Assembly (NCBI GenBank): GCA_951812955.1 | Contig: OX638340.1 | Coordinates: 2,272,001-2,336,000 of the forward strand | Direction: 5' to 3' | Source of the DNA: an uncultured Gemmatimonadota bacterium | Lineage (GTDB): Bacteria; JAAXHH01 | DNA length: 64,000 bases | Shown: piece after piece, positions 12,050-44,772 of the stretch | How the letters are laid out: every line of letters starts with the position of its first letter | Numbering within the stretch: position 1 is the stretch's first letter | Position numbers and translations under genes: made by a program | The notes under the pieces: model-generated | Told to the model about the DNA's origin: nothing | The model's database searches: none | What the model saw: only the letters and a program-made list of their open reading frames with translations

Positions 12050-12830
12050 GTCTTACCTCGCTTTCCCTGCCCTTGTGCCGCGTCCTCGGGCGTCCTCAAG
12101 AGGTGGCCGTCGCGAGACTCGGTTAGCCCTCGACCGTCAGTGAACGTCGCCGGGCCTGTTTCCATTCGCATGGCCATGGGAAGCGCCTCGCGGCTGCTTG
12201 ATTCATTATACGCACCAACCGGCCAATACGCTTCATTTGGCCTGGATTTCTACCGTACTACAGCAACATAGGGTGCAAACTCCATGCCACGATGATTCCG
12301 TGTCGACGACTTGATGATTCCGTGCCTCCTTCACGATGCTTCTGGGCCGACGGCATGGTAAATTCGCGCCACGCCAGGATTCTATTCGCGTATATGTGCC
12401 AATTTGGCATATCAGGTCGCACAAACTGCCATTTTAGCATGTGGCTTACTACAGAATCTCACACTATTTGGTCGGCAACTTCATCCCTCCGCTCGAATCC
12501 GTGTATGCCACGGCCTTCGCATAGCTATTCCGAACCGCGCCGGAGGTTTTTCTGCCCAGACCGTACTGCGCCTGTGTGATCTGCTGTCCGGACCGCGCTG
12601 CGCCAGTGTAATTTGCTACCCGGACTGCGATACGCCTTGTGTGTTCTACTTCCATCGAAACAGGTTGACAATTCGACGGTTCGGGTTACCATGTCGAGAA
12701 ATGATCGGCCTGCGTGTCCGTACTTAAACAGAGCGGTCTGTTCAGCCTGTTCCGGGGCAATCACGCGCCTGTTTTCGACGGAAACAGCCGCGACATTTCT
12801 CTGTCTACTGTCTCCATACGAGGAATACCC

Positions 12831-21091: not shown

Positions 21092-21266
21092 TATGGACTA
21101 CTTGATCCAGATGCAGCCTACAAATGGTTTTTCAACATCTGATTATGGACTACTTGACGCGACTGATTATGGACTACTTGTGATTATGTACCTTCTGTTC
21201 CAGACGCAGATTAAAATGGGTCCTGGACACGGTTATTCATACCTTCTGGACACGGTTATTCATACC
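21092..21266. repeat. Intergenic short direct repeats. TATGGACTACTTG occurs three times, and a 22-bp unit occurs twice; the second copy contains the stop codon of FtsX-1.
   Basis: The three-copy motif lies at about 21092, 21145 and 21169. The 22-bp copies ggacacggttattcatacct lie at 21221-21243 and 21245-21266. The minus-strand TAA of FtsX-1 is at 21256-21258. Confidence 0.85.
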
Positions 21267-23718: not shown

Positions 23719-23852
23719 GGCGGATCTCCAGCAGCTTAAAACGGGATTTCGTACAGGAAGCAGAAGCCACCCCAACCTTATGCGGACAATATAGTGTTCC
23801 CCTCGACTTTTCGGTACGACATTACAGGCGTAACGCGGCAACCAGGAGCACC

Positions 23853-27029: not shown

Positions 27030-29555
27030 CTACTGTTCCAACAGCATGAAGCTGGTCGTCCTGGTTGCGCGCTGCCCGGAATGCCGGTCCTCAAGCGTCA
27101 CCGCGAGCACATACACACCGGCCGTCAGGTCCGTGGTATCGATCGCCGTGTACTCGGCTTCCTCGGACGTATCGCCCTCGCCCTCATACGACAGAACGAC
27201 GGTCTGCAGGTCGCCGGACCGATCAACCGGACGGCCGCCCGTATCCGGCATGCCCTCGGGTTTGATCTCGTAGTAGGTCTGGTAGGAGGTCCGTCCCGCT
27301 TCGTCTCTGTCCAGGTTATAGATCTCGTAATACACGTACACCAACTGGCCCCGCCCATATGCGCGCAACGGATGCGGCACGATGTTCAGCCCTTTCCTGA
27401 CGAACGATCCGGTCTGGTCGGTCGGCGTTATACCGGTAGACATCTTGAGGCCGCTGATCATCAGATCGCGTCCCTGGTAATCGGGGATGGAAACCGGTTT
27501 CCTGTAGACGCCGATGCGCTGGGAGGTTTCATCCTGCATCTCCACGGCCGCCGTGAACTGTCCCGAAGGCACCAGGACATCGACGGCCAGCGTGTAGGCC
27601 GATACCCGGGCCTGTTCGGAGCTTATCATCCGCTTCGGCCGTTCGATGGGACCGAAGCGGAACTTCTGATTAAGCACCGGCTTGTTTACCGTATCGCGCA
27701 GCGTGGCCTGGTTTCTCAGGAAAGTTTCGTTTCCAAGGCCGTCGGTGACGTCTCCGAACTGCCAGACTGGAAGGCTGTAGACCAGTTCCATTACCGTTTT
27801 CTTGCCGTTCCCCCGGAAAGTGGTGATGTCGAAGGCATAGTCCAGGCCGTCGCCTCCGAAATCGTGCTCGTAGTCTTCCGGGCTACGCTCGATCAGCTGT
27901 TCGGCGATCCGCTGGGGATGATGCATTTCCTCCTTCTGAATTTCGTTGAATGCAGCGTTGTTATCGGGTTCCGTGGAGATCATCAGCGTGCGCAGGGGGT
28001 AGTCGAACCGGCCCCCTCCCATCTGGTCGACGAAGAACAATTCCATGTCGTGCGCCGCGTATACCCAGCTCTCCGACCTGTAAGACGGCCCCATCGCCCG
28101 TCTTTGAACGATCCTGGTTTCGTAGTTGACCTCGGATTGATCATTTAATGAAGACTCTTCTGTGGCTACGTTGTCCGCGGTGAGGTTGTTCACGGTCAGA
28201 AGTGATGCAGCGCCGAAGCCCGCGCGATTCTTCGTGTCCTGTTCCAGCTGGACGGACACCTGTCCCCGGTCCACTTTCAAGCGGTAACCGAACTGCCAGT
28301 TCTTTTCGCGAATGGCGTCCACGGCCGGATTGCCGGTGGGCATGTAGATATCTCTTGGGTCCTCGTATGAGCGGAAGAGAAACCGTCGGCGGTCGTCGGG
28401 CTCGCCATAGCGGACGTATATCTCCCCACGACGGTCGTAGGGGAACCGAGCCGAGGAAAAGTGTATACGTGCATACATCACCCGCTTGTAATGTTCGACC
28501 AGGCGTTCGTTCTCGACCGTGGCTGGATTCGGGTCCCGGGCATTCCAGAAGTCCTGCCACAACCTGTCGCGGGCCGGTCCTTTCGCGGCCTCCCAGGCCG
28601 CCAGCTCGTCGGGAGAAGCCACGTGGGCCAGGTCCCAGTAAATCTCCTGTTCCTCGGACTCAAGCCCCTTGATGTAGGTCTCCAGCGACCGCTGCAGCAG
28701 GTCGTACTGTTTCTTCGAACTCATGGACAGCGCTTCGAACTGCGTCAGCATGGTCCGGATCAGGTCGGGCGTGATACCCTCCATCTCCTCCGCCATCTTC
28801 CGGAGCTGTTCTGCGCCCCGCTCGTAATATTCGAACCGGTGACAGATGCCGGCGAATTTCCGAAGCGTCTCGGGATGGTCCGGATTGACCTGGTACTGTC
28901 TCAGGTAATTAGTCAGCGCCTTGATGTAGTCGTCGTAACGGTCCCTGACGCGCTTCCCGTGGTCCGCCAGCTTCAGTTCCTCGTAACAACGGCCGAGTTG
29001 ATAGAATGCGTCCGGATGCTCGGGATCCAATTCTACAGTCCGCTCAAAGTACGCCCGGCCATCCTGATGACTGCCGATCAGCCAGGCGGTATCGACCTGG
29101 TCCATGTACGTCAGGCCCATGATGTACTGGATCTGGGCGTTTTCGGGATCCAGTCTCATGGCGGTGCGCAACGCCTTCCGGGCATCGAGGCGCCGGTGCG
29201 GCATGCGATTGTATACGAGCCCCAGGCCCATATGGCCAGGTGCCCATTTCCTGTCTCTCCTGACCGCGTGCTTGAAGGCCTTGAGCGCTTCTGCGTCCCT
29301 GTTCAGTGCGAACAGGGCCATGCCGAGCCAGTAGTGGCCGGAAGCACTGTTCTTATTATCCAGTACCGCCTGCTGCAACGGAGGCAGCGCTTCACGGTAC
29401 ATGCCCAGTTCGTAGTAGCGTTTGCCTTCTTCAAGCGATGACTGGCTTGCCAGCCCTGCATCCGGCGGCAAGGCGGACTGGGCCTGCGAGCGACCGAATG
29501 GGACCCACACGGTCAGAATCAGTGCGGCGGTTGAAATGAAACGGAGTGTAGTCAT
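27030..29555 (-). CDS. Secreted TPR-repeat protein with a conserved C-terminal domain resembling the GWxTD family (TPR-1).
   Basis: The start is at the internal MTTLRFISTAALILTVWVPFGRSQAQ signal. It has about 6 TPR units (YWLGMALFAL..., YIMGLTYM...). The C-terminal domain contains FWNARDPNPATVENERLVEHYKRVMYARIHF...PYDRRGEIYVRYGEPDD. This matches the remembered GWxTD-domain pattern with the GWxTD residues substituted. Confidence 0.6.
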   Translation of the reverse strand: MTTLRFISTAALILTVWVPFGRSQAQSALPPDAGLASQSSLEEGKRYYELGMYREALPPLQQAVLDNKNSASGHYWLGMALFALNRDAEALKAFKHAVRRDRKWAPGHMGLGLVYNRMPHRRLDARKALRTAMRLDPENAQIQYIMGLTYMDQVDTAWLIGSHQDGRAYFERTVELDPEHPDAFYQLGRCYEELKLADHGKRVRDRYDDYIKALTNYLRQYQVNPDHPETLRKFAGICHRFEYYERGAEQLRKMAEEMEGITPDLIRTMLTQFEALSMSSKKQYDLLQRSLETYIKGLESEEQEIYWDLAHVASPDELAAWEAAKGPARDRLWQDFWNARDPNPATVENERLVEHYKRVMYARIHFSSARFPYDRRGEIYVRYGEPDDRRRFLFRSYEDPRDIYMPTGNPAVDAIREKNWQFGYRLKVDRGQVSVQLEQDTKNRAGFGAASLLTVNNLTADNVATEESSLNDQSEVNYETRIVQRRAMGPSYRSESWVYAAHDMELFFVDQMGGGRFDYPLRTLMISTEPDNNAAFNEIQKEEMHHPQRIAEQLIERSPEDYEHDFGGDGLDYAFDITTFRGNGKKTVMELVYSLPVWQFGDVTDGLGNETFLRNQATLRDTVNKPVLNQKFRFGPIERPKRMISSEQARVSAYTLAVDVLVPSGQFTAAVEMQDETSQRIGVYRKPVSIPDYQGRDLMISGLKMSTGITPTDQTGSFVRKGLNIVPHPLRAYGRGQLVYVYYEIYNLDRDEAGRTSYQTYYEIKPEGMPDTGGRPVDRSGDLQTVVLSYEGEGDTSEEAEYTAIDTTDLTAGVYVLAVTLEDRHSGQRATRTTSFMLLEQ

Positions 29556-29575
29556 GATCTCTATGTGATAAACCG

Positions 29576-29630
29576 GGTACGGTATGGCCTGCAAGGTACG
29601 GTGTAGCCCGCATGGTACGATATGGCCTGC
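29576..29630. repeat. Three tandem 19-bp direct repeats (GGTACGGTATGGCCTGC-like) about 20-75 nt upstream of the TPR-1 start.
   Basis: Copies lie at 29576-29592, 29595-29611 and 29614-29630, with 2-3 mismatches between them. Confidence 0.8.
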
Positions 29631-29704
29631 GAACAAACTGAACCGTCGATCAAAGCGGCTGTTTCCCCACACGTTCGGCGACGCGGGGAAGACCGAAGAA
29701 AGTC

Positions 29705-32125
29705 CTACCGTTCCATGACCAGGAAGTTGGCTGATTTGGAAACGGTACTTCCCGCGTGCAGGTCGGTAAGCCTGACAGTAAGTATATACTCACCCGCCGG
29801 CAGACCCGAAGTATCCAATGAAGTATACTCACGGTCCTCGGCTGAAGACCCTTCTCCCGCGAAGGCCATCATTACCGTCTGCATGTCTCTTTGCCTGCGG
29901 GCCGACCAGCCACGCCTTTCAGTAACCTCCAGGGGGCTGATCTCGTAGTGGAATTCGTACGCTGTTCTCTTCTCCCTGTCCAGGCTGAGGTTGTATATCT
30001 CGCAGTAAACGTAAACGGGGTTTCCCCGAAGGTAGAGCCGTCCCGGATTGGGCGTGATGTTCAATCCCTTGCGCACAAAGGGGCCCTGTACGCCTGTCGG
30101 AGCGATGATGGTGGCCAACTTGAGATCGCTGATGAGTAATTCTTCGCCGCTGTAATCAGACAGGGTGACTGGCTTGCGATACACTCCGATCCGGCTCGTC
30201 GTCTCGTCCTGCACCTGGACCGCCAGCGTGAAGCGTCCCGCCGGCGCCACGACGCTAGCGGGCAACGAATACACCGGGACATTCACTTGGCTTTCGGCCA
30301 TCGGCCCCTTCGGCCGGTCGAAGGGGCCGAAACCGAACTCGTGGGTGAACTGCGGGCTCATGGTCGAATCACGCAGGGTGACCAGGTGCGCGAGCCGGGT
30401 CCTGATCCCTCTGCCGTCCGACACCTCACCGAACTGCCATATGGGTATGCTGTAGGACAGATCCAGTTCCGTTGCACCGTTGTCCGCCCTGAAACTTACG
30501 GCGTCGAAGGCGTACTCGAGCGGCTCTCCGCCGTAGTCGTGCAGGTATTCCTCCGGGGCTTTGGCGATCAGTTCTTTGGCGAGCCGCCGGGGACTGAACC
30601 TTTCCTGCCGGGCCATCGCCTGCGGGTTGGTAAGCAGGTTGCCCTGGGGGTAATCGAATCGGCCCCCGCCGAACTGGTCGACGAAGAACAGTTCCAGGCC
30701 ATGCCGGACGTATACCCAGCTCTCGGTAGTGTATCCCGCACCCATTTCCTTTCTCTCCCTCTGCAGGTCAAAGACCGCGGATGATGCAACGATTCCGTCG
30801 GCCAGCGTTCCGCCAAGGGAGTCCAGTTCTGCTACAGTTACCCCCTCGGGCGGGACGATCGTCAAATTGCCCCGGTCGACACGCAATTGATAGCCAAACC
30901 GGTTATTCTGCTCTCGGATCGCGTCCACTGCCGCGTCATCGGAAATCGTAGCACTTTGATAGGCAATCCGATCTGCGTTATAGACGTTGCCGCGGCGGTC
31001 TTCCGGTTCACCGTAACGGACGTACATCTCGCCGCGGCGGTCATAGGGGTGCTGTCCCTGTGAAAAATGGTACCGGGCATACATTACGCGACGGTAATGC
31101 GCTACGAGGCGTTCGTTGGTCACGGTGGCGGGATTCGAATCCCTGGCATTCCAGAAGGCATGCCAGCGCGCATCGCGTTCGAGTCCGCCGGCTTCCTTCC
31201 AGGACGCCAGCTCGTCAGGAGTAGCCACGTGCGCCAGATCCCGGTAAACGCGCTGTTCGTCAGGGCCAAGAAGGGAAATGTACGTTTCAAAAATCCCATG
31301 CAGCACATCCGGCCGTGATTTCGAGTCTTCGGAAAGCGTGCTGAATTGCGTAAGCAGGGTCTGGACGATAGCTGAACCCGAATCTTCAAGTTCTGCTCCG
31401 GCATGTTCCAGTAACTCAACGGCCAGACCATACCTTTCGGAAAGAAGGGCCAGATAGACGAAACGGCCGAGTGCGTCGTAATGGCCGGGATTTACCTTGA
31501 ACTGCGAGATATATGCCGCCATCGCCTTGTCGAATTCGGGCGACTCGGGCCGTTCAAAACAACGGCCGATCTGAAAATACGCATCGGGATGGGAAGGATC
31601 CAATACCGCCGCTTTGAGGAAATAGTTCCGGCCGTCCCGGCCGCCACCCAGAATCCGGTCGGTCTTTCGCGGATTCATATGGGCGATTCCGATATGGTAC
31701 TGGATTTCCGGGTCGTCAGGCGCCAGCCTGGCCGCCATACGCAAGGCGTGACGCGCGTCCAGTCTTCGGTATTTCAACTGAATGTAGGACTTGCCCAGCC
31801 CCACGTAGCCTAACGCCAACTTCTCGTCCAGTTCGACTGAACGCTTGAACGAACTTACCGCCTTCCGGTATTGCTCCAACCCGTATTGAGCCATGCCGAG
31901 CCAGTAGTGGGCGGGCGCCGAACCCCCATCAGCCTCGACGGCCTGATTAAAGTACGGCAATGCTTCCGCGAACTTTTCCTGGTCGAATAGCGTCCGGCCC
32001 GCTTCCAGGGGAGTCCGCTGGCCGGTTTCAGCGACTGTATCCGTTGCGGAGGATTGGGCCTGTAGGCGACCCTGCATGAGTAAAACGAGCAGCACCGCTA
32101 CCAGAAGAACAGGGTATCTGGTCAT
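29705..32125 (-). CDS. Secreted TPR-repeat protein with a GWxTD-like C-terminal domain (TPR-2, paralog of 27030..29555).
   Basis: Signal peptide MTRYPVLLVAVLLVLLMQGRLQAQS, then TPR repeats. The C-terminal domain (FWNARDSNPATVTNERLVAHYRRVMYARYHF...PYDRRGEMYVRYGEPED) is co-linear with TPR-1. Confidence 0.6.
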   Translation of the reverse strand: MTRYPVLLVAVLLVLLMQGRLQAQSSATDTVAETGQRTPLEAGRTLFDQEKFAEALPYFNQAVEADGGSAPAHYWLGMAQYGLEQYRKAVSSFKRSVELDEKLALGYVGLGKSYIQLKYRRLDARHALRMAARLAPDDPEIQYHIGIAHMNPRKTDRILGGGRDGRNYFLKAAVLDPSHPDAYFQIGRCFERPESPEFDKAMAAYISQFKVNPGHYDALGRFVYLALLSERYGLAVELLEHAGAELEDSGSAIVQTLLTQFSTLSEDSKSRPDVLHGIFETYISLLGPDEQRVYRDLAHVATPDELASWKEAGGLERDARWHAFWNARDSNPATVTNERLVAHYRRVMYARYHFSQGQHPYDRRGEMYVRYGEPEDRRGNVYNADRIAYQSATISDDAAVDAIREQNNRFGYQLRVDRGNLTIVPPEGVTVAELDSLGGTLADGIVASSAVFDLQRERKEMGAGYTTESWVYVRHGLELFFVDQFGGGRFDYPQGNLLTNPQAMARQERFSPRRLAKELIAKAPEEYLHDYGGEPLEYAFDAVSFRADNGATELDLSYSIPIWQFGEVSDGRGIRTRLAHLVTLRDSTMSPQFTHEFGFGPFDRPKGPMAESQVNVPVYSLPASVVAPAGRFTLAVQVQDETTSRIGVYRKPVTLSDYSGEELLISDLKLATIIAPTGVQGPFVRKGLNITPNPGRLYLRGNPVYVYCEIYNLSLDREKRTAYEFHYEISPLEVTERRGWSARRQRDMQTVMMAFAGEGSSAEDREYTSLDTSGLPAGEYILTVRLTDLHAGSTVSKSANFLVMER

Positions 32126-32630
32126 GCCAAACCAACTTGTAGGGGGAAATGACGAAAAGAGATGGAACCTGCTTTAACAGATCCAGGTAATGCCTGCAAC
32201 CTACCCTTATTCGCGGCCACAGTCAAACAAAAGCGGCCTAATCTCGCCGCAGGGTGTCCGCCGGGTTGAGCATGGCGCTTCGGAAGGTATGCACGCTCAC
32301 GGTGAGCAGGGCGGTGGCCAGGACAACCAGTCCCGCCGCGACGAAAGGCGCAGCACCGATCTCCGTCCGGTAGGCGAAGTCCGCCAGCCACTCGTTCATG
32401 AGCCACCAGGCGGCCGGCCAGGCGAGGACGTTGCCGATCACCACGAGGACGACGAACTGCCTCGACAGCAGGCCGACTATATCTGAGACCGCGGCGCCCA
32501 TCACCTTGCGGATGCCGACTTCCCGCGTGCGGCGCGCGATGTCCAGCGACACGAGTCCATATACACCCAGGCAGGCGATCAGCAGGGCGAATACCGCGGA
32601 ATAGGTGAAAATGCGCGCAAGGTTGGCTTC
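31970..32630. repeat. Segment about 97% identical to 36903..37565. It covers the TPR-2 5-prime end, the intergenic region and the FtsX 3-prime end.
   Basis: Direct alignment of the two stretches shows only scattered mismatches across 660 bp. Divergence begins upstream of about 32630 and 37565. Confidence 0.85.
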
Positions 32631-34610
32631 ACCCTCGTAGAATCGGGCGATGTCGTCATCAAGGAAGGAATACTCGAAAAGCGATTCCGGGGCGATCTCC
32701 ATCCATGCCGCTCTCAACAGATCCAACGTGGCAGGCAGGTCCCGCCCGCTGACGCGTACCAGGAGGAAATTAACACCACCCTGGGTTTCCTCCCCGAAGG
32801 AAGCGGGATTCATCGTCAGGATTACCGGCTCTATTTCTTGATGCATCGACTGGTAGTGGTAGTCCTCCAACACGCCGATGACCGTATATCCGTGGGGCAG
32901 GGTCCGTCCGAGGGGGTCGTCCCATTCCATCACCCTGGCCGCGGCTTGGTTGATTATACATGACCCGGATTCGTCGTTGCCGAACTCCCGGGAAAAATCT
33001 CGTCCTGAGACCAGGTTCAGCTCTAGCGCCTTCACGTAATCGTAATCCACCGTGAACATATATGCTTCAAGCTTGTTCCCGTCCTTATCTGTATAGGCGG
33101 ACTGACCCAGGCCCCGACCGAAGGTGTTGGAAGCTCCCGTCACCAGGATTACGTTCTCATACGAGTTTATCCTGGATTTATAGACGTCCGCGGAGTTGGA
33201 ATTGGGCCCCATGTGGATGACGATGACGTTTTCCTTGTTGTATCCCAGATCTGTGTTCATGACGAAGTCCAACTGTCGGGTCATGACGAGTATGGAAACA
33301 ACGAGTAAGGCAGACAGGCCGAACTGGACGACCATCAGGCCGCGGATAACCAGGTTTGGGCTCCCGATCCGAACCTGATGTCTGAATACGGCAACGGGAT
33401 TGAAACGGGAGAGGATCAGGGCGGGATAGCTCCCGGACGCCAGGGCAACCAGGCCAGTCAACACTAGTAGCGCGGCGATCGTAGAGCCGTTGGAGAGATA
33501 ATCTAGGACGTATGAGCTTCCCGCCAGCGTGTTGAATACAGGAAGAAACAGGTGGGCCAGGATAACGCCTAAGATGAGGGCGAAGCAACTCAACACCGCG
33601 GTCTCACCCAGGAACTGTTTCATGATCTGGGTTTTCTGCGCACCGAACACCTTCCGCAGTCCAACCTCCCTGGCGCGCGAAGACGATCGGCAGAAGGCCA
33701 GGTTCATGAAATTCACGCAGGCGATGAAAAGAACGAAAAGCGCCGTGCAAATCAGTATGTAAGACCTGTTGGGATCGCTCGTGGTACCCTGGCCAAACCT
33801 CACACCCTGAGCAAGATACATGTCCGTTAAAGGCTGCAATTCCAGGTATGGCGATCCCATCTGTGAAAAATGAGTCTCGACAAAACCCGGCAACTGGTTT
33901 TCAAGCATGTCTGCCATTTCCGGATCCGACAGCTCGACGTAGGTTGAGGAGACACTGTAGTTCCAATTGCCGATCGCCTGATTCGTCCAGTTGTCGATAG
34001 CAAACATTTTGTCGAAGGGGATCAGGAAATCGAACCGTATGCTGGAATTAACCGGAGTGTTCTCTGCTACCCCGGCCACCAAAAACGGTTCACCTCGTAT
34101 CGTGAGTTGCCTGCCCAGGGGGCTTCCCGTCCCAAAATACTTCTCGGCGGCGGACTGGCTGATCACCACCGAGTTCAGTTCGTTCAGGACCGTCCCGGGA
34201 TCACCTTCGATCAATGGGAAGGAGAACACGCTGAATATCGATGGATCGCTATACAGAACGTGTTCTTCCCGGAACACATCATTACCAACACGGACTTCCG
34301 CCCCTCCGGTGGTTCGTATTCGCACGGTCTGTTCGACGCCGGGATACTGTTCCTTAAAGGCAGCGGCAAGTGGAAGAGGGGTAATCCCACTGGTATATAA
34401 GTTATCCTCGAAACCTGATCCACCGACGTTGACCCGGTAGATCCGGTCCGCCTTCTCGTGAAAGGCGTCGTAGGTCCACTCCTGGCGCACGAAGAGAAAT
34501 ACGAGGAGGCTGCAGGCGATGCCGGTGGACAGGCCCAGCGTGTTGATGAAGAAGTAGCCCTTGTTGCCGAACAGGTGCCGAAACGCGATGACAAGGTGGT
34601 TTTTCAGCAT
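32238..34610 (-). CDS. ABC-transporter FtsX/MacB-type permease (FtsX-2).
   Basis: 790 aa beginning MLKNHLVIAFRHLFGNKGYFFINTLGLSTGIACSLLVFLFV.... It has two FtsX blocks. Its last roughly 130 aa are identical to FtsX-3. Confidence 0.85.
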   Translation of the reverse strand: MLKNHLVIAFRHLFGNKGYFFINTLGLSTGIACSLLVFLFVRQEWTYDAFHEKADRIYRVNVGGSGFEDNLYTSGITPLPLAAAFKEQYPGVEQTVRIRTTGGAEVRVGNDVFREEHVLYSDPSIFSVFSFPLIEGDPGTVLNELNSVVISQSAAEKYFGTGSPLGRQLTIRGEPFLVAGVAENTPVNSSIRFDFLIPFDKMFAIDNWTNQAIGNWNYSVSSTYVELSDPEMADMLENQLPGFVETHFSQMGSPYLELQPLTDMYLAQGVRFGQGTTSDPNRSYILICTALFVLFIACVNFMNLAFCRSSSRAREVGLRKVFGAQKTQIMKQFLGETAVLSCFALILGVILAHLFLPVFNTLAGSSYVLDYLSNGSTIAALLVLTGLVALASGSYPALILSRFNPVAVFRHQVRIGSPNLVIRGLMVVQFGLSALLVVSILVMTRQLDFVMNTDLGYNKENVIVIHMGPNSNSADVYKSRINSYENVILVTGASNTFGRGLGQSAYTDKDGNKLEAYMFTVDYDYVKALELNLVSGRDFSREFGNDESGSCIINQAAARVMEWDDPLGRTLPHGYTVIGVLEDYHYQSMHQEIEPVILTMNPASFGEETQGGVNFLLVRVSGRDLPATLDLLRAAWMEIAPESLFEYSFLDDDIARFYEGEANLARIFTYSAVFALLIACLGVYGLVSLDIARRTREVGIRKVMGAAVSDIVGLLSRQFVVLVVIGNVLAWPAAWWLMNEWLADFAYRTEIGAAPFVAAGLVVLATALLTVSVHTFRSAMLNPADTLRRD

Positions 34611-34686
34611 GATCGTTTTGCCTCCTGTCGCTTACGAGCTGTAAGCCGGAAAACGTTCCTGAGGAAACACGATCTTGGAATGGCAA

Positions 34687-34719
34687 AGGGGATCTACGGT
34701 TTCGACCCGTCGATCCCCT
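34687..34719. other. Hairpin with an 8-bp stem (AGGGGATC / GATCCCCT) and a 17-nt loop, between Big_2-1 and FtsX-2. It is repeated at 39617-39649 with a 9-bp stem.
   Basis: Sequence aggggatctacggtttcgacccgtcgatcccct. There is no strong U-tract, so it could be a weak terminator for the Big_2 gene or a regulatory element for the FtsX gene. Confidence 0.35.
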
Positions 34720-34779
34720 GAAAAGTTGCATGTTGGTAACTATTGCGATGCCGGAACTTACGTAGTGCATTCCCGACTG

Positions 34780-36381
34780 TCAGTCAACGACAAACGTGTT
34801 TTCACTACGGCGAAAACTCCTATCATCGCCAAACGAAACATCATAAACCAGTCTATACTCACCGGCGACTTCCGGATCGTATGGGCAAGCGTCGAATTCC
34901 ACCCGTGTGGCCTCGATGTCTTCCCATGTACTGCCCATATCGTCGCTTCGCTGCCATACGGAGTAATGGACCGTCATGGGGATACCTAACGGCTGAGTTG
35001 GGTAGTTGTTTAGTTCAGCACGAAAGAGTGAACTTGCACAGTATTCTATAGTTATAGGAGTATATCCTGGTCCCGTGAATATCAACTTACCGGGCTCGAC
35101 CTTCCAACCTTCCCACGGGACATAGACTATCTCGTCGACTGGCTCGTCGACGCCTTCGCCGCCATCCCCGCCATCCCCGCCTTCACCACCTTCCCCTTCA
35201 GTCGGAACCATGACCGTGATACTCACCATGGCCGACACGTCGCCGGACGCGGCCGTGACTACGGCCATGCCGTTGCCCACCGCTTCTACCAATCCATCCT
35301 CGTCCACGGTGATCACGTTTTCGTCACCGCTCGTCCACGTGACGGCCGGTTCGGCAATGGCATTGTCGTTCCCGTCGCTGACGGAAACCATGAGTTGCAG
35401 GGTCTGTTCGATCTCGGTCAGCGTGGTGGCATCGGGTGCGACCTCGATGCTGATGCCGGCCGGAACCTGGGCGACGGTGATCGACGCAGTCCCCATAGCG
35501 TCTCCGGCCTGTGCCGTGATCTCCGCCATGCCGTTGTCCACCGCGGTCACAAGCCCGTTCTCGTCCACGGTGGCCACGGCGTCATCGGCGCTTGACCAGG
35601 TCACCATCACGTCCTCCATCGCGTTTTCGTGCTGGTCCAGCACGACGGCCGCGAGTTCCACGGTGTCGCCGATCGCTTCCAGCGTGTGCGCAGCGGGCTC
35701 GATCGTCAGGCTCGTCGGCACGGATACGGATACCGTGATGGACGCACTGGCGGACAGGCTGCCGGATGTGGCCGTGATCTCAGCCATCCCGTTACTCACC
35801 GCCGTTACAAGGCCCGCCCCGCTCACGGTCGCCACGGCGTCGTCGCCGCTCGACCAGGTGATGGACTGGCCGGACATGATGTTGTTCCGCTGATCCCGCA
35901 CCGTAGCCGACAACTGTACCGTTTCCCCGATCGCCTTCAGCGTATGGGACGTCGGTGCGACCGTGATCCGGGTCGGCACCGGCTCGGCCACCGTGATGTT
36001 CGCAGTGCCCGTCGCGTTGCCGGACTGCGCCCTTATTTGCGCGGCGCCGTTGGCCACGGCCGTCACCAGGCCATTTCCGCTGACAGTCGCCACCGCGGTA
36101 TTGCTGCTCGACCAAGTCACCGCCTGGCCGGTCATCGGATTGTTGTTCTGGTCCCTCACCATGGCCATCAGTTGCACGGTCGCGCCAATCGTCGCCAGCG
36201 TGTGCGAAGACGGCGTGACAGAAATGCTCGTCGCAACGGGCGCAGGCGGTGGAGCAGGCGGGGTCGGTGTGGACGGCTCGGGACTCGTCGGGCTGCTGTC
36301 CCCGCCACCGCATCCCGCCAGAAAAACCAGGTACAAGGATGCCGTGATCTTGGCGAACACGCGACTGTATGGACCAAACAC
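34780..36381 (-). CDS. Surface lipoprotein with four Big_2 (bacterial Ig-like group 2) domains, a Gly/Glu/Asp linker and an unclassified roughly 125-aa Cys-containing C-terminal domain (Big2-1).
   Basis: GTG start with an AAGGAG ribosome-binding site. It begins MFGPYSRVFAKITASLYLVFLAGCGGGDSS (lipobox), followed by a Pro/Thr linker. Four repeats carry the Big_2 signature (..TVQL.A.V.DQ.NN.M.GQ..TWSS....VATV...GLVTAV.NG.A.I.A..). The C-terminal domain reads VPWEG...CASSL...VHYSVWQRSDDMGSTWEDIE...DACPY.PEVAGEYRLV. Confidence 0.8.
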   Translation of the reverse strand: MFGPYSRVFAKITASLYLVFLAGCGGGDSSPTSPEPSTPTPPAPPPAPVATSISVTPSSHTLATIGATVQLMAMVRDQNNNPMTGQAVTWSSSNTAVATVSGNGLVTAVANGAAQIRAQSGNATGTANITVAEPVPTRITVAPTSHTLKAIGETVQLSATVRDQRNNIMSGQSITWSSGDDAVATVSGAGLVTAVSNGMAEITATSGSLSASASITVSVSVPTSLTIEPAAHTLEAIGDTVELAAVVLDQHENAMEDVMVTWSSADDAVATVDENGLVTAVDNGMAEITAQAGDAMGTASITVAQVPAGISIEVAPDATTLTEIEQTLQLMVSVSDGNDNAIAEPAVTWTSGDENVITVDEDGLVEAVGNGMAVVTAASGDVSAMVSITVMVPTEGEGGEGGDGGDGGEGVDEPVDEIVYVPWEGWKVEPGKLIFTGPGYTPITIEYCASSLFRAELNNYPTQPLGIPMTVHYSVWQRSDDMGSTWEDIEATRVEFDACPYDPEVAGEYRLVYDVSFGDDRSFRRSENTFVVD

Positions 36382-36463
36382 TGCTGTCTCCTTTCGGCTA
36401 ATTACTGAAAAGCGGTTCGTTGTAATCTACCGTTCTTGATCTCGATGAACAGATTATCTGACT

Positions 36464-37057
36464 TCATGCACGCAGGCCCTTCATACTCTCCCGGGCCGCT
36501 TCGAGGGTCCGGTCGATGTCTTCTTCGGTATGGGCCAGGGACACAAACCCCGTTTCAAGGCGCGAAGGCGCCAGGTAGACGCCCCGGTCCAGCATATTCC
36601 AGAAGTATCGCCCGTACGTATCCGCGTCTGACGTGGAAGCTGCATCGAAATTGTTGACGGTCTGATCTGTGAAGAAGGTACACATCATGGAGCCCACACG
36701 GGTCAGGCAGGCCGGGACGCCGGCCGCTTCCGCCGCGGCGCGAAGGCCGTCGCCGAGGCGGGCGGCCAGGGATTCCAGCCGGTCGTAGACCCCGGGTTCC
36801 TGAAGCTGCCGCACCGTTTCATATCCAGCGGTCATGGCAAGCGGATTGCCGGACAGCGTGCCGGCCTGGTAAACCTCACCGGCGGGCGCCACGGTTTCCA
36901 TGAACTTTTCCTGGTCGAATAGCGCACGTCCCGCTTCCAGGGGAGTCCGCTGGCCGGTTTCAGCGACTGTATCATCTGCGGTGGATTGGGCCTGGAGGCG
37001 ACCCTGCATGAGAAAAACGAGCAGGACCGCTACCAGAAGTACAGGGTATCTGGTCAT
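36464..37057 (-). pseudogene. Chimeric in-frame ORF. The TPR-2-type promoter, ribosome-binding site and signal peptide (50 codons) are fused to the C-terminal 147 codons of hemL. It is the junction product of the tandem segmental duplication.
   Basis: The N-terminus MTRYPVLLVAVLLVFLMQGRLQAQSTADDTVAETGQRTPLEAGRALFDQEKF equals the start of the 29705..32125 gene. The remainder, METVAPAGEVYQAGTLSGNPLAMTAGYETV...MKGLRA, equals the end of the 41855..43144 hemL gene. The breakpoint is at about 36903. Confidence 0.7.
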
Positions 37058-37169
37058 GGCAAACCAACTCGTAGGGGGAAATGACGGAAAGAAATGGAAC
37101 CTGCTTTAACATATGCAGGTAATGCCTGCAACCTACCCTTATTCGCGGCCTCAGTCAAACAAATGCGGC

Positions 37170-39541
37170 CTACTCGCTCCGCAGGGTGTCCGCCGGGTTG
37201 AGCATAGCGCTTCGGAAAGTATGCACGCTCACGGTGAGCAGGGCGGTGGCCAGGACAACTAGTCCCGCCGCGACGAAAGGCGCAGCACCGATCTCCGTCC
37301 GGTAGGCGAAGTCCGCCAGCCACTCGTTCATGAGCCACCAGGCGGCCGGCCAGGCCAGGACGTTGCCGATCACCACGAGGACGACGAACTGCCTCGACAG
37401 CAGGCCGACTATATCTGAGACCGCGGCGCCCATCACCTTGCGGATGCCGACTTCCCGCGTGCGGCGCGCGATGTCCAGCGACACGAGTCCATATACGCCG
37501 AGGCAGGCGATCAGCAGGGCGAATACCGCGGAATAGGTGAAAATCAGCGCCAGGTTGTTCTCATCCTGGTAGAACCGTTCTATATCGTCTTCCATGAAGA
37601 AATACTCGTAGGGCGTCTCAGGCGCTGTCCCCTTCCACGCGTCCTCGAGCAGGGAAAGCGTGGTTGGCAGATCCCTGCCGCTGACCCGGACCAGGAGGAA
37701 GCCGTAACTGACCGAAGTGTTACCCATGGATGTGGGATTGAGGGAGAGTATAATCGGATCGATCTCCTGGTGCAGCGACTGGAAATGGAAGTCCTTGACT
37801 ACGCCGATTACCGTATACCCATGGGGCAGTTTGCGCCCGATCGGATCTTCCCATTCCAGCTTCTTTGCCGCGGCCTCGTTGATGATGCACGATTGGAACT
37901 CGTCGTTTACGAATTCGCTGGAAAAATCACGGCCACGGACGAGGTTCAGTTCAAGCGTCTCCAGGTAATCGCGGTCCACGGTCGCCATGAACGCTTCCAG
38001 CTTGTTTCCGTCCGGTCGGTGTAGGCAACCTGGGGCAAGAAATGCCCCTGACCAAAGGTGCTGGAAGTGCCGGAAACCAGGAGTATGTCTTCGTACGGTA
38101 TCACTTTGCTGCGAAAGATCTCCAGGTCGTTTGAATTGAAGGGGGCCTGGATGACTACCACGTTGTGCGGGTTGAACCCCAAATCCCCCGTCCGCACAAA
38201 GTCCAGCTGCCGGGTCATGATGAGAATTGAAATGACGAGCAACGCGGACAACCCGAACTGCACGACCATCAAGCCGCGCACGAAGAGATTCGGCCCTCCG
38301 ATCTGAACCTGTTGCCGGAAGATGGTGACGGGGTTGTAGTGTGAGAGCACCAGGGAAGGATAACTGCCGGAAACCAGGGCGACCAGCACGGTCAAACCCG
38401 TCAGCGCGGCCAGCGTGGATCCGTTCGTCAGGTAGTCCAGCACGAGGGACTTTCCCGCCAGCATATTGAAAACCGGAAGGAACAGGTGGGCCAGGGCCAC
38501 GCTCAGCACCAGGGCGAAGCAGCACAGCGCCGCGGTTTCGCCCAAGTGCTGTCCCATGATCTGGGTTCGGCGCGCGCCGTAAACTTTCCTGACACCGACC
38601 TCTTTCACACGCGAAGACGAACGGCAGACGGCCAGGTTCATGAAGTTGACGCAGGCGATGAATAGTACGAGCAGCGCCGTGCAAATCAGGATGTAGGACC
38701 GGTTGGGATCGCTGGTGGGACCCAGCCCGAATTTGACTTCCTGATCCAGGTAGATATCGGTGATGGGTTGCAGGATCAGATAGGGCGACGAGTAGGCCGG
38801 GAAATGGGTTTCGACGAATTCCGGCAGTTGACTGAGGAGCGATTCTACTCGATCCGGATCCCCGAGTTCGATGAAAGTGGCCGTGGACGAATAGTTCCAC
38901 TTTCCGATGGCATTCGATATCCAGGGGTTTATTTCCGGCGCCTTGTCAAAGGGTATGAGCAGGTCGAACCGAATACTGGAGTTATCCGGTCCGTTCTCCG
39001 CGACGCCGGTTACGGTCAGCGGAATGCCCTGTACCAGGAGCGTCCTGCCCGTCGGAGACTCCTGGCCGAAGTACTTCGCCGCGGCGGATTTGCTGACGAC
39101 CACTGAATTCGCCTCGCCGAGGGCCGTACCGGGATCGCCTTCGATCATCGTGAAGGAGAACATCTCGAAGAAGGACGGATCGCAGAAAAGGGCGTTCTCC
39201 TTGCGGAACGTATCTTCTCCGATGCGAATATCGGATGGATATTCCGTTATGCGCACGGTCCGGACCACGTCGGGATATTGCTGCTCCAGGGTAGCCGCGA
39301 GCGGGAGGGGAGTTCTCGCGCTTATGAACGGGTTGTCGTCGAAATCCACTCCACCGGCTGCGACCTGGTAGATCCGGTCCGATTTCTCGTGGAAGGCGTC
39401 GTAGGTCCACTCGTGGCGGACGAAGAGAAAGATCAGGAGGCAGCACGCGATACCGGTCGACAGGCCAAAAGTATTGATGAAGAAATAACCCTTGTTGGCG
39501 AACAGGTACCGCAACGCGATGACGAGGTTGTTTTTCACCAT
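37170..39541 (-). pseudogene. FtsX/MacB-type permease paralog (FtsX-3) disrupted by a single-nucleotide deletion near 38012.
   Basis: The N-terminal 531-aa ORF (37946..39541) and the C-terminal ORF (37170..38900) overlap in different frames. Restoring one G in cgggac (expected AYTDRDGNKLEA, as in FtsX-2 AYTDKDGNKLEA) gives a continuous roughly 790-aa protein. This could be a real pseudogene or a homopolymer sequencing error. Confidence 0.7.
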
Positions 39542-39708
39542 GATCGTATTGCCTCCTGTCGCTTACGCATGCAAGCAGGAAAACGCACCTGGGGAAAGAC
39601 GATCCTGCAATGGCAAAGGGGATCTACGGTTTCGACCCGTCGATCCCCTTAAAGGTTGCATGTTGGTAACTATTGCGATTGGGAACTTACGTTGTGCATT
39701 CCTGACTG

Positions 39709-41772
39709 TCAGGGGATGACAAACGTATTCTCACTACGGCGAAAACTCCTATCATCGTCAAGCGAAATATCACCAACCAGTCTATACTCACCGGCGACTT
39801 CCGGATTGTATGGGCAAGCGTCGAATTCCACCCGTGTGTCCTCGATGTCTTCCCATGTACTGCCCATATCGTCGCTTCGCTGCCATACGGAGTAATGGAC
39901 CGTAATGGTGACACCTAACGGAGTTGGGCGGTTGTTTAGTTCTCCACCTAAGAGTGAACTTGCGCAGTTTACTATAGGTATTGTAGCAAGTCCTGGGACC
40001 GTAAAAACCAACCGACCGGGCTCGACCCGCACACCTTCCCACGGGACGTAGGTGACTTCATCCACCGTAATGGTCACCGTGATGCTCACCATGGCCGACA
40101 CGTCGCCGGACGCGGCCGTAACTTCGGTCATGCCGTTGCCCACAGCTTCTACCAACCCATCCTCGTCCACGGTGACCACGTTCTCGTCACCGCTCGTCCA
40201 CGTGACGGCCGGTTCGGCAATGGCATTGTCGTTCCCGTCGCTGACGGAAACCATGAGTTGCAGGGTCTGTTCGATCTCGGTCAGCGTGGTGGCATCGGGT
40301 GCGACCTCGATGCTGATGCCGGCCGGAACCTGGGCGACGGTGATCGACGCAGTCCCCATAGCGCCTCCGGCCTGGGCCGTGATCTCCGCCATGCCGTTGT
40401 CCACCGCGGTGACCACGCCGTTCTCGTCCACGGTGGCCACGGCGTCGTCGCCGCTCGACCAGGTCACCATCACGTCCTCCATCGCGTTTTCGTGCTGGTC
40501 CAGTACGACGGCCGCGAGTTCCACGGTGTCGCCGATCGCTCCCAGCGTGTGCGCGGCTGGCTCGATCGTGATGCTCGTTGCCACGGGCTCGGATATCACC
40601 ATGACCGTGATACTCACCATGGCCGATACGTCGCCGGATGCGGCCGTAACTGCGGCCATGCCGTTCCCCACCGCTTCTACCAAACCATCCTCGTCCACGG
40701 TGGCCACGTTTTCGTCACCGCTCGTCCACGTGACGGCCGGTTCGGCAATGGCATTGTCGTTCCCGTCGCTGACGGAAACCATGAGTTGCAGGGTCTGTTC
40801 GATCTCGGTCAGCGTGGTGGCATCGGGTGCGACCTCGATGCTGATGCCGGCCGGAACCTGGGCGACGGTGATCGACGCAGTCCCCATAGCGTCTCCGGCC
40901 TGTGCCGTGATCTCCGCCATGCCGTTGTCCACCGCGGTCACAAGCCCGTTCTCGTCCACGGTGGCCACGGCGTCATCGGCGCTTGACCAGGTCACCATCA
41001 CGTCCTCCATCGCGTTTTCGTGCTGGTCCAGCACGACGGCCGCGAGTTCCACGGTGTCGCCGATCGCTTCCAGCGTGTGCGCAGCGGGCTCGATCGTCAG
41101 GCTCGTCGGCACGGATACGGATACCGTGATGGACGCACTGGCGGACAGGCTGCCGGATGTGGCCGTGATCTCAGCCATCCCGTTACTCACCGCCGTTACA
41201 AGGCCCGCCCCGCTCACGGTCGCCACGGCGTCGTCGCCGCTCGACCAGGTGATGGACTGGCCGGACATGATGTTGTTCCGCTGATCCCGCACCGTAGCCG
41301 ACAACTGTACCGTTTCCCCGATCGCCTTCAGCGTATGGGACGTCGGTGCGACCGTGATCCGGGTCGGCACCGGCTCGGCCACCGTGATGTTCGCAGTGCC
41401 CGTCGCGTTGCCGGACTGCGCCCTTATTTGCGCGGCGCCGTTGGCCACGGCCGTCACCAGGCCATTTCCGCTGACAGTCGCCACCGCGGTATTGCTGCTC
41501 GACCAAGTCACCGCCTGGCCGGTCATCGGATTGTTGTTCTGGTCCCTCACCATGGCCATCAGTTGCACGGTCGCGCCAATCGTCGCCAGCGTGTGCGAAG
41601 ACGGCGTGACAGAAATGCTCGTCGCAACGGGCGCAGGCGGTGGAGCAGGCGGGGTCGGTGTGGACGGCTCGGGACTCGTCGGGCTGCTGTCCCCGCCACC
41701 GCATCCCGCCAGAAAAACCAGGTACAAGGATGCCGTGATCTTGGCGAACACGCGACTGTATGGACCAAACAC
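39709..41772 (-). CDS. Surface lipoprotein with six Big_2 domains and a diverged copy of the same C-terminal domain (Big2-2).
   Basis: The first roughly 410 aa are identical to Big2-1. Two extra Big_2 domains from an internal tandem duplication (about 40060-40600 versus 40600-41160) follow. The C-terminal domain is about 75% identical to that of Big2-1. Confidence 0.8.
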   Translation of the reverse strand: MFGPYSRVFAKITASLYLVFLAGCGGGDSSPTSPEPSTPTPPAPPPAPVATSISVTPSSHTLATIGATVQLMAMVRDQNNNPMTGQAVTWSSSNTAVATVSGNGLVTAVANGAAQIRAQSGNATGTANITVAEPVPTRITVAPTSHTLKAIGETVQLSATVRDQRNNIMSGQSITWSSGDDAVATVSGAGLVTAVSNGMAEITATSGSLSASASITVSVSVPTSLTIEPAAHTLEAIGDTVELAAVVLDQHENAMEDVMVTWSSADDAVATVDENGLVTAVDNGMAEITAQAGDAMGTASITVAQVPAGISIEVAPDATTLTEIEQTLQLMVSVSDGNDNAIAEPAVTWTSGDENVATVDEDGLVEAVGNGMAAVTAASGDVSAMVSITVMVISEPVATSITIEPAAHTLGAIGDTVELAAVVLDQHENAMEDVMVTWSSGDDAVATVDENGVVTAVDNGMAEITAQAGGAMGTASITVAQVPAGISIEVAPDATTLTEIEQTLQLMVSVSDGNDNAIAEPAVTWTSGDENVVTVDEDGLVEAVGNGMTEVTAASGDVSAMVSITVTITVDEVTYVPWEGVRVEPGRLVFTVPGLATIPIVNCASSLLGGELNNRPTPLGVTITVHYSVWQRSDDMGSTWEDIEDTRVEFDACPYNPEVAGEYRLVGDISLDDDRSFRRSENTFVIP

Positions 41773-41854
41773 TGCTGTCTCCTTTCGGCTAATTACTGAA
41801 AAGCGGTTCGTTGTAATCTACCGTTCTTGATCTCGATGAACAGATTATCTGACT

Positions 41855-43144
41855 TCATGCACGCAGGCCCTTCATACTCTCCCGGGCCGCTTCGAGGGTC
41901 CGGTCGATGTCTTCTTCGGTATGGGCCAGGGACACAAACCCCGTTTCAAGGCGCGAAGGCGCCAGGTAGACGCCCCGGTCCAGCATATTCCAGAAGTATC
42001 GCCCGTACGTATCCGCGTCTGACGTGGAAGCTGCATCGAAATTGTTGACGGTCTGATCTGTGAAGAAGGTACACATCATGGAGCCCACACGGGTCAGGCA
42101 GGCCGGGACGCCGGCCGCTTCCGCCGCGGCGCGAAGGCCGTCGCCGAGGCGGGCGGCCAGGGATTCCAGCCGGTCGTAGACCCCGGGTTCCTGAAGCTGC
42201 CGCACCGTTTCATATCCAGCGGTCATGGCAAGCGGATTGCCGGACAGCGTGCCGGCCTGGTAAACCTCACCGGCGGGCGCCACGGTTTCCATGATTTCCC
42301 TGCGACCGCCATAGGCCCCCACGGGAAGTCCTCCCCCGATGATCTTGCCCAGGCAGGTCATGTCGGCCGAGATGCCGAATCGTTCCTGCGCTCCGCCGAA
42401 TGCGATCCTGAATCCCGTGATGACCTCGTCAAAAATCAGAATGATCCCCCGCTTCTCCGTCTCTTCCCGAATGGTTTCGAGAAAGCCTTCGGCCGGAGGG
42501 ATCATGCCCATGTTGCCGGCGACCGGCTCTACGATCACGCAGGCGACGTCGCCGCCCCGCTCCGCCAGGGTGCGCCGGACGGCCTCGACGTCGTTGTAGG
42601 GTAGATTGATGGTCATCTTCGCCAGGTCCGCAGGCACGCCGGGACTGTCGGGGATGCCGAATGTCGCGGCGCCGGAACCGGCCTGGATGAGAAAGCTGTC
42701 TCCGTGGCCGTGGTATCCCGCCTCGAATTTGACCGCCAGGTCGCGCCCCGTGTATCCGCGGGCGACGCGCAGGGCGCTCATGGTCGCTTCCGTGCCGGAG
42801 TTGACCATGCGTATCAGGTCGATGGACGGGAAGGCGGTCCTGACCAGTTCCGCCAGCCTGATCTCGGCTTCGGTGGGCGTGCCGAAACTCGTACCCCGTT
42901 CACAGGCCTTCTTCAGGGCCTCGACCACGGCGGGATGGCCGTGGCCCAGGATCAGCGGTCCCCAGGATCCCAGGTAATCGATGTACTCGTTGCCGTCCAC
43001 GTCGTAGACCCTGGAACCCGCGCCCCGGTCCATGAAGACGGGGCTTCCTCCAACCCGCCCGAAATTCCGCACGGGGCTGTTCACCCCGCCGGGCATGGAT
43101 CGCTGGGCCTGGTCGAAGAGGGTACTGGATCGGGAACGGTTCAT
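41855..43144 (-). CDS. hemL: Glutamate-1-semialdehyde 2,1-aminomutase.
   Basis: 429 aa. MNRSRSSTLFDQAQRSMPGGVNSPVR...GSWGPLILGH... is an aminotransferase class III protein with the typical HemL N-terminus. Confidence 0.9.
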   Translation of the reverse strand: MNRSRSSTLFDQAQRSMPGGVNSPVRNFGRVGGSPVFMDRGAGSRVYDVDGNEYIDYLGSWGPLILGHGHPAVVEALKKACERGTSFGTPTEAEIRLAELVRTAFPSIDLIRMVNSGTEATMSALRVARGYTGRDLAVKFEAGYHGHGDSFLIQAGSGAATFGIPDSPGVPADLAKMTINLPYNDVEAVRRTLAERGGDVACVIVEPVAGNMGMIPPAEGFLETIREETEKRGIILIFDEVITGFRIAFGGAQERFGISADMTCLGKIIGGGLPVGAYGGRREIMETVAPAGEVYQAGTLSGNPLAMTAGYETVRQLQEPGVYDRLESLAARLGDGLRAAAEAAGVPACLTRVGSMMCTFFTDQTVNNFDAASTSDADTYGRYFWNMLDRGVYLAPSRLETGFVSLAHTEEDIDRTLEAARESMKGLRA

Positions 43145-44154: not shown

Positions 44155-44772
44155 TCAGTACCCCCCGCAGTTGGCGCAACCGCCGCTGTCAAATCCGTTC
44201 AAAGCACTGCAGCGTTCACACTGGAACAGGAGATGCCCGGCGTCTATGGACCGTGACGCCATCAAATTCAGCGCCGTCGCCCGGAGTTTCGAGGGCACGA
44301 TGATCCTCGCCGACTCGTCCGAACATGGACCGGTAAGCAGGCCGGAGTCCTGCTTGGTCGAGAACACCCGGCTGTCCACACCCTGCTGTGCGAGGAAACG
44401 CTGGTAGCTCAGCGCTTCACGGTCTTCGGCCCGATAGAGGATTTCCTCCTTCGGAAACTCTTCTACCAATCCATGTCTTTCACAGAAATACCGGCCATGA
44501 CGGCGTATCCCGCAGTCCTCGCACACGTGCCGTCCGCAGACGACGCACAGGCCGTGCGCAGGTCCGGCCGGATGGTTCAGGCATCGAAGATCGTCGATGA
44601 ATACTGTGCCGCAGACCGGGCAGGACCCCAGGTCGCCCGGGATCTCCTCCTTGCACTCGTCGCAAACCCACGTCGACACCTCATTCAGGGCGTTAACCAG
44701 GGTGGACGCGCAGATAGGGCATTTTTCCTCGCCGCGGGCGTATTCACATTCGCATTCCGGGCAGAAAGGCAT
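44155..44772 (-). CDS. Multi-zinc-ribbon (CxxC-rich) protein of unknown function, embedded in the heme operon.
   Basis: 205 aa with at least 8 CxxC pairs (MPFCPECECEY...CPICAS...CDECKEE...CPVCGT...CVVCGRHVCEDCG...CERCSA...CANCGGY). It lies 26 nt upstream of hemB and 195 nt downstream of cobA/hemD. Confidence 0.5.
   Translation of the reverse strand: MPFCPECECEYARGEEKCPICASTLVNALNEVSTWVCDECKEEIPGDLGSCPVCGTVFIDDLRCLNHPAGPAHGLCVVCGRHVCEDCGIRRHGRYFCERHGLVEEFPKEEILYRAEDREALSYQRFLAQQGVDSRVFSTKQDSGLLTGPCSDESARIIVPSKLRATALNLMASRSIDAGHLLFQCERCSALNGFDSGGCANCGGY

Follow-up and report, generated by a model that had tools for sequence, protein, structure and literature searches.

Tandem duplications of bacterial chromosomes that form at short microhomologous junctions have been described in Salmonella and E. 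coli, and replacement-type flexible genomic islands are known, in which variable cassettes lie between conserved flanks and are exchanged by homologous recombination. For the C-terminal tips of Rhs proteins and for the effector-immunity arrays of Vibrio cholerae's type VI secretion system (T6SS), displacement models have been proposed (PMC5361080). Here we describe a locus beside the heme-synthesis gene hemL in an uncultured Gemmatimonadota bacterium: in a window of 64,000 nt (contig OX638340.1 of GenBank assembly GCA_951812955.1, positions 2,272,001 to 2,336,000; all coordinates below count from the first letter of this window), a segment of about 5 kb adjoining hemL is present as a head-to-tail tandem duplication. 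The duplicated segment comprises the 3′ part of hemL, the gene of a Big_2-domain lipoprotein, the gene of an ADOP-like permease (FtsX) and the first 154 nt of TPR-2, a gene with tetratricopeptide-type (TPR) repeats. We consider this to be a real, recent and lineage-specific heteroallelic tandem duplication, in which the two units hold different alleles of a strain-variable cassette, and put the probability of this reading at roughly 0.7.

Self-BLAST of the region between 27 and 47 kb, together with comparison of the boundary sequences, finds two adjacent direct copies sharing one novel junction (Table 1): 35207-36913 matches 40598-42302 (99.4% over 1707 bp) and 31964-35125 matches 36896-40051 (77.9% over 3180 bp). 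The first-pass annotation of this DNA had suggested comparing the region with itself, and its claim of a head-to-tail tandem duplication with GA microhomology is correct to the base in both breakpoints and quoted boundary strings; the content that it listed as duplicated, FtsX, Big_2 and the 3′ part of hemL, is borne out by the gene content of the units. The junction reads GGCGCCACGGTTTCCATGA up to the join and ACTTTTCCTGGTCGAATAGCG after it (it can also be written as CACGGTTTCCATGA followed by ACTTTTCC, or as CACGGTTTCCATGA followed by ACTTTTCCTGGTCGAATAGCG) and is descended from two parents: to the left of the join stands the sequence ending at 42294, to the right the one beginning at 31972. 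Exact identity between these parents extends to the dinucleotide GA only, which lies within a looser TTCC..GA..TTTCC resemblance. No other repeat was found at the end points by self-BLAST of the window, and no insertion sequence (IS) element or long repeat is present at them. All genes of the region are on the minus strand, in the transcription order hemL, Big_2-B, FtsX-B, a 197-aa open reading frame (ORF), Big_2-A, FtsX-A, TPR-2 and TPR-1. An Rfam scan of the window gave no match, and promoter and terminator scans were at chance level.

Table 1 Coordinates of the two units, their end points and the genes and segments in and around them.
Feature	Position in window	Strand	Content and basis
Unit A	31972-36903 (4932 bp)	-	hemL 3′ fragment, Big_2-A, FtsX-A, intergenic region, start of intact TPR-2
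Unit B	36904-42294 (5391 bp)	-	hemL 3′ part, Big_2-B, FtsX-B, intergenic region, TPR-2 5′ fragment
Left breakpoint	GA 31970-31971		TPR-2 codon 52/53; boundary comparison and translation
Novel junction	GA 36902-36903		Common to hemL mid-gene and TPR-2 5′ region; boundary comparison
Right breakpoint	GA 42293-42294		Inside hemL, codon about 284/285, end of unit B; three-way boundary comparison and HemL translation
Perfectly identical block	35314-36903 = 40705-42294 (1590 bp)	-	hemL 3′ 440 bp, intergenic region, Big_2 N-terminal part; exact comparison
FtsX 3′ segment	32287-32612 (326 bp)	-	A against B 98.8%, 4 mismatches
hemL	41855-43144	-	Glutamate-1-semialdehyde 2,1-aminomutase, 429 aa, full-length; NCBIfam, Pfam Aminotran_3
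Big_2-B	39709-41772	-	Putative lipoprotein, 687 aa, six Big_2 domains; Pfam
Extra 528 bp in unit B	40070-40597	-	Two Big_2 domains; in-register tandem copy of 40598-41125; repeat family D2
FtsX-B	37170-39541	-	ADOP-like duplicated permease, divergent B-type allele; tblastn, alignment, translation
Chimeric ORF	36464-37057	-	197 aa; TPR-2 aa 1-52 followed in frame by HemL aa 285-429; translations
Big_2-A	34780-36381	-	Putative lipoprotein, 533 aa, four Big_2 domains; Pfam
FtsX-A	32238-34610	-	Intact 790-aa permease, A-type allele; Pfam MacB_PCD and FtsX twice, ADOP profile end to end
TPR-2	29705-32125	-	806 aa, TPR and GWxTD domains; Pfam TPR families, TIGR04514 49.8 bits (cutoff 28)
TPR-1	27030-29672	-	GWxTD domain

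The similarity between the units is strongly mosaic. From the perfectly identical block it falls to 72-98% in the rest of Big_2 and the Big_2-FtsX spacer and to 57-75% nucleotide identity in the FtsX core, where the two proteins share 66% identity over their first 509 aa; the argument made earlier from a figure of about 65% for the FtsX bodies, that a simple recent duplication cannot account for their divergence, is supported. The flanks had also been called near-identical. This holds for the 1590-bp block, but the right arm is uneven, with only 4 mismatches in the FtsX 3′ segment and 24 in the final 315 bp up to the junction (31972-32286, 92% identity).

Relatives of the locus were gathered by a species-representative scan with FtsX-A and by look-ups of close homologues, which gave 21 loci spanning hemL to TPR-2 (those named are L001-L006, L008-L013, L017, L039, L040-L043 and L123). 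Their sources are metagenome-assembled genomes (MAGs), several of them from sponges or corals. The comparison with orthologous loci had likewise been proposed at the outset, and its outcome is uniform: all 21 carry a single unit in the same gene order and without the junction, so the duplication is the derived state. The order that they share is the heme cluster, hemL, Big_2, FtsX, TPR-2 (with TPR-1 in some), peptidase M29, GH106 and a second ADOP-like gene.

Judged by the flanks, the closest relatives are L040 (about 95%), then L017 (96% upstream, 93% downstream) and L041 (about 92-94%). Colinearity of unit A extends over 7.2 kb in L041 (91.7% identity) and over 9.2 kb in L040 (94.5%), and the FtsX-A core is 92-99% identical to both at the nucleotide level, against 57-75% for the FtsX-B core. 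Over its first 509 aa, FtsX-A has 93-96% identity to 15 or more public proteins. These comparisons indicate that unit A is native-like, the A-type being the allele of the closest relatives. Unit B was also considered as the native allele, since L017, the closest species representative, is slightly closer to B; this was dropped because L040 and L041 show the A-type colinear with the flanks.

The two cores have separate histories. In a bootstrapped neighbour-joining tree of FtsX residues 30-660 from 27 orthologues, A groups with L040, L041 and L042 (100% bootstrap) and B with the database proteins P0034 and P0035 (93%), and 22 of the 27 orthologues, which come from different species, fall under the node that unites A and B. 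A and B are not sisters in this tree and are therefore not paralogues that diverged in place; the two copies are mutual closest relatives only over aa 675-760. The nearest sequences to the FtsX-B core are L123 (81-86% nucleotide identity, N-terminal half) and the proteins P0006, P0034 and P0035 (79% protein identity), while the best B-type match in Joint Genome Institute (JGI) metagenome contigs has 66% protein identity.

This tree bears directly on one explanation offered by the first-pass annotation, an older duplication later homogenised at its ends, taken here as copies that diverged in situ and were made identical at their ends by gene conversion. Conversion could in principle have produced the perfect 1590-bp block, and the sister placement of A and B in the C-terminal segment of FtsX, away from the A-type relatives, would make some exchange between the units possible. 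The core tree contradicts the proposal, however, with A beside its closest relatives and B beside distant proteins, and so does the hemL fragment, which is non-functional and still 100% identical to hemL. Synonymous divergence (dS) in the core is 1.4 between A and B, more than the 0.55 between A and L001, which is another species, and the single-unit loci include genomes about 95% identical in their flanks. We regard an old duplication as very improbable, although some local homogenisation may have taken place at the C-terminal segment.

Replacement of the FtsX core is also seen where nothing is duplicated. Over positions 5900-12800 of their own locus sequences, L041 and L017, which are both chromosome-scale and independent, are 99-100% identical in hemB-hemL-Big_2 and again from TPR-2 onward, whereas their single-copy FtsX genes are 63-77% identical, with a core dS of 1.2, a ratio of nonsynonymous to synonymous divergence (dN/dS) of about 0.18 and sharp boundaries near the gene ends. 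Allele swaps thus recur in this group without duplication.

A second explanation offered earlier was replacement of the FtsX body by recombination with a third paralogue; read literally, a recent exact duplication would have been followed by overwriting of one core through gene conversion, its source being a further paralogue elsewhere in that genome. B-like genes (encoding P0034, P0035 and P0006) can sit outside the canonical locus in some lineage, with Big_2 remnants and a DUF772 fragment, but the window has just one further paralogue (21256-23859), with 33% identity, and among the top 120 protein matches only P0041 is from the 3,813,436-bp source contig and P0130 is the one cluster member there; these two records are identical to the 531-aa FtsX-B ORF and to FtsX-A, respectively. 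Furthermore, the related loci searched gave one copy of the orthologue group each, and single-copy genomes show the same swap without a second copy. We consider overwriting from such a paralogue to be improbable. What stands of the proposal is the replacement of the FtsX body by recombination; a third paralogue is neither needed nor seen in the window, and the donor is more aptly taken to be another lineage's divergent allele of this locus, as in the L041/L017 swap.

The proteins nearest to FtsX-B are encoded on short contigs (L124:1-6259, L125:1-4388 and L126:1-3531) in a non-canonical neighbourhood: broken Big_2 remnants lie upstream, a repeat of about 170 bp is common to all three contigs, and L126 has an ORF with a DUF772 transposase domain downstream. 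Pfam searches with the neighbours of the B-like gene in L124 gave no match.

Toward the 3′ end of FtsX the relationships change. In the tree of residues 675-760, A and B are sisters (96% bootstrap), apart from the A-type relatives. At about 32425-32560 A equals B, and both differ from L040, L041, L042 and L016 and resemble L017 (94%) and L123 (91%); by sliding identity over the 3′ segment, A is 78-85% identical to L040 and L041 against 94% to L017. This pattern would mean either that one unit converted the other here or that the resident allele was mosaic beforehand and this is a retained ancestral segment. Over the last 315 bp B often carries the state of the relatives and A is unique. Variants in the TPR-2 fragment of B come as close as 22 nt to the junction, and L042 has some of them as well, which fits a donor-derived end.

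The Big_2-FtsX spacer (34652-34744 in A, 39581-39674 in B) departs in its own way: here B is 97-100% identical to L041 and L017 and A only 90-91%. Unit A, otherwise native-like, is the odd one out, which suggests a further small recombination patch.

A divergent core between near-identical flanks is also how a false duplication of two haplotypes would look, and closely related populations do contain A-type alleles together with others. Strains living side by side, one carrying an A-type and the other a B-type cassette, might have been stitched in series during assembly, while the organism truly has a single unit. The junction is present in no independent assembly (JGI metagenome contigs, protein records), and FtsX-B may owe its frameshift to a consensus error within a G run. 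The form of the join argues the other way. Assemblers join sequences at long overlaps, so that a shared repeat is where one would look for an artefactual join, whereas the mid-gene sequence of hemL and TPR-2 have only 2 bp in common where they meet, and the result is a clean two-parent join with the fusion in frame. In addition, the source is a single 3.81-Mb contig, which suggests reads long enough to span the 1.6-kb repeat and probably the 5-kb unit. We therefore think an assembly artefact unlikely.

The boundary comparisons, trees and alignments show one illegitimate 2-bp GA join and, in unit B, an allele of a deeply diverged lineage; unit A is native-like. For a heteroallelic duplication of this kind, DNA from a conspecific or close donor with a B-type cassette would have recombined into the chromosome. 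In the simplest route, one event akin to homology-facilitated illegitimate recombination would suffice: a fragment of donor DNA running from hemL (or further upstream) to TPR-2 codon 52 would be anchored by a homologous crossover in or upstream of hemL/Big_2, and its free downstream end, in TPR-2, would join the resident hemL illegitimately at GA. This would place intact hemL, the donor cassette, the TPR-2 fragment fused to the hemL fragment, and the resident cassette in the order observed. The same product could be reached in two steps, by sister-strand duplication at GA and subsequent homologous replacement of the core in one unit, a route that would call for a crossover no more than 22 nt from the junction, or else for another exchange in unit A. 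Later changes would include a short exchange between the units at the 3′ end of FtsX (unless an ancestral segment was retained there), the 528-bp in-frame repeat in Big_2-B and the 1-nt deletion inactivating FtsX-B, unless the latter is a consensus error. The B core is phylogenetically foreign and adjoins intact hemL, and its far end is a 2-bp join, as displacement might leave it but as the two-step route would too.

Several points weigh against this account. The junction is read from the assembly, and the 37-mer across it was not found in JGI metagenome contigs. A search of 5.8 billion proteins found no B-type donor closer than 79% protein identity. The one-step route requires a donor equal to the recipient over 1590 bp yet about 8% different near the junction; given the L041/L017 pair, such identity over hemL and the N-terminal region of Big_2 is plausible. 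The dissimilarity of A to the A-type relatives at about 32425-32560 needs an extra event or an already-mosaic resident allele. Finally, the stretch examined is 64 kb, and a donor paralogue may lie elsewhere in the chromosome. As to age, a perfect direct repeat of 1.6 kb is expected to recombine readily, so the tandem is probably young, or else is maintained by selection or by drift in a small host-bound population.

Both permeases have the architecture of ADOP proteins, with MacB_PCD and FtsX domains twice (two Pfam stretches each) and with Big_2 and TPR genes as neighbours. The ADOP profile TIGR03434 is matched over positions 5-803 of 803 with 293.1 bits, against a curated cutoff of 622.3; a full-span match with a score below the cutoff indicates an ADOP-like architecture rather than a curated member of the family. 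No ABC ATPase family is listed within 10 kb in L040-L043. Between A and B the core has a dS of 1.43, and dN/dS is about 0.17 in each domain. The two periplasmic domains have diverged most (60-65% protein identity), the transmembrane parts less so.

FtsX had been described as duplicated, and both copies are indeed present; FtsX-B, however, is split by a 1-nt deletion near 38012-38014. In tblastn the reading frame switches at aa 509/510, where an arginine codon in a short G run has lost one base (GACCGGGAC to GACCGGAC). Once the frame is restored, the 790 codons read through with zero stop codons, and the deletion is the only defect. The gene may truly have been inactivated of late, or the consensus may be wrong at this place. 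The low dN/dS and the lack of stop codons indicate that FtsX-B was a constrained gene until very recently. A 94-aa ORF (32122-32406) was considered as a possible regulator and dropped: it has no family match and overlaps the 3′ end of FtsX-A.

The Big_2 protein of L041 has the same length as Big_2-A (533 aa). Big_2-B begins with ...LVFLAGCGGG, in which a lipobox-like LAGC motif can be read. The extra length of unit B had been put down to a two-domain repeat within Big_2, rightly so: the 528-bp copy is 83-100% identical to its neighbour per 66-nt block (about 93% overall) and makes up most of the 459-bp difference between the units, being offset in part by an indel of about 63 bp. Among relatives (L040, L042, L043, L044 and L123; gene at about 7470-9840 of these loci) the hemL-adjacent Big_2 protein ranges from 533 to 719 aa, with additional LRR domains in L042-L044 and L123, so the lipoprotein is as variable as the permease.

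Intact hemL scores 650 bits with NF000818 (cutoff 398) and 620 bits with TIGR00713 (cutoff 527) and carries the LGKIIGGG motif with the pyridoxal phosphate (PLP)-binding lysine, as expected of a full-length HemL. It is the last gene of a heme-synthesis cluster, in synteny with hemA, hemC, hemD and hemB in relatives. The chimeric ORF at the junction has a signal-peptide-like N-terminus derived from TPR-2, lacks the LGKIIGGG motif and matches Pfam Aminotran_3 at profile positions 269-374 only. It is therefore probably a non-functional by-product of the rearrangement and not a second hemL; the gene-position index holds no exact record of the chimeric protein, nor of FtsX-A or P0041. Elsewhere in the heme cluster, between the hemD/cobA-like gene and hemB, lies a 205-aa ORF with cysteine-pair motifs (44155-44772), which is conserved in all relatives (66-99% identity), has no NCBIfam match and for which weak zinc-ribbon (DZR) Pfam matches alone are recorded in relatives.

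The name TPR-2 used by the first-pass annotation is apt as far as the Pfam TPR families go, and incomplete, as the protein also has a GWxTD domain. TPR-1 and TPR-2 are tandem paralogues (about 43-47% protein identity, nucleotide matches of 63-73%); TPR-1 is present in L040, L010 and L013 and absent from L041, L017 and most other relatives, a presence/absence polymorphism. The second ADOP-like duplicated permease of the window (an 867-aa ORF) is downstream of the GH106 and peptidase M29 genes, a position conserved in relatives, and there is no sign that it has exchanged sequence with the duplicated units. The genomes that share the locus (L001-L017 and L039; 70-95% identity) are labelled by NCBI partly as Candidatus Latescibacterota and partly as Gemmatimonadetes/Gemmatimonadota; the phylum naming of such host-associated MAGs is thus inconsistent.

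Provided that the tandem is real, an uncultured symbiont here offers a natural case of a divergent allele entering the chromosome beside a conserved anchor gene, with the old cassette still present behind a fragment of that gene and with a clean 2-bp join. The part most worth following up is the deep, exchanged permease alleles: at the hemL-adjacent locus, alleles with dS above 1 and dN/dS of about 0.17 circulate among otherwise near-identical genomes, and they offer a lead on the interaction partners of an uncharacterised orphan permease family. For genome curation, a 1.6-kb perfect repeat and a possible frameshift are flagged at this place. More tentatively, the gene set behind the heme operon could be a displacement-type hypervariable locus, in which ancient alleles of the periplasmic parts of the permease are kept by balancing or frequency-dependent selection and moved by recombination, and of which this genome would be a merodiploid snapshot. 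We find this possible but doubtful; if true, an allele replacement in a sponge- or coral-associated lineage would have been caught before the 1.6-kb perfect repeats delete one copy.

Set beside known systems, the locus resembles the microhomology duplications in its two head-to-tail copies, its single 2-bp join without an IS element or long repeat and its fusion ORF at the join, and also in that the long perfect direct repeats should make the structure unstable. It differs in that about 3 kb of one unit comes from another allelic lineage, for which duplication alone is insufficient. With the displacement arrays (PMC5361080) it shares a conserved upstream gene followed by a variable cassette, an incoming variant that adjoins the conserved gene, a resident variant downstream behind a fragment of conserved sequence, and, if the one-step route holds, one homologous and one illegitimate end; plain homologous allele swaps are found at the locus in relatives as well. 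Unlike in those arrays, the cargo is a lipoprotein and an ABC-type permease rather than a toxin/immunity pair, and there would be one displacement step only, with no array in any of the 21 relatives. The permeases are like ADOP (TIGR03434) and MacB-type FtsX permeases in having MacB_PCD and FtsX twice, about 800 aa and no adjoining ATPase gene, and unlike ADOP in their low score and in having a fixed place after a heme operon, in synteny with genes for a Big_2 lipoprotein and a TPR/GWxTD protein. As in flexible genomic islands, deeply diverged alleles occupy one orthologous position between flanks of up to 99-100% identity, and the allele tree departs from the flanks; here, however, the variable part is one gene and part of its neighbour rather than a multi-gene glycosylation or O-antigen cluster, and this genome has two alleles in tandem. 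The rearrangement is thus of a known kind, and its less common property is that the two units carry different alleles.

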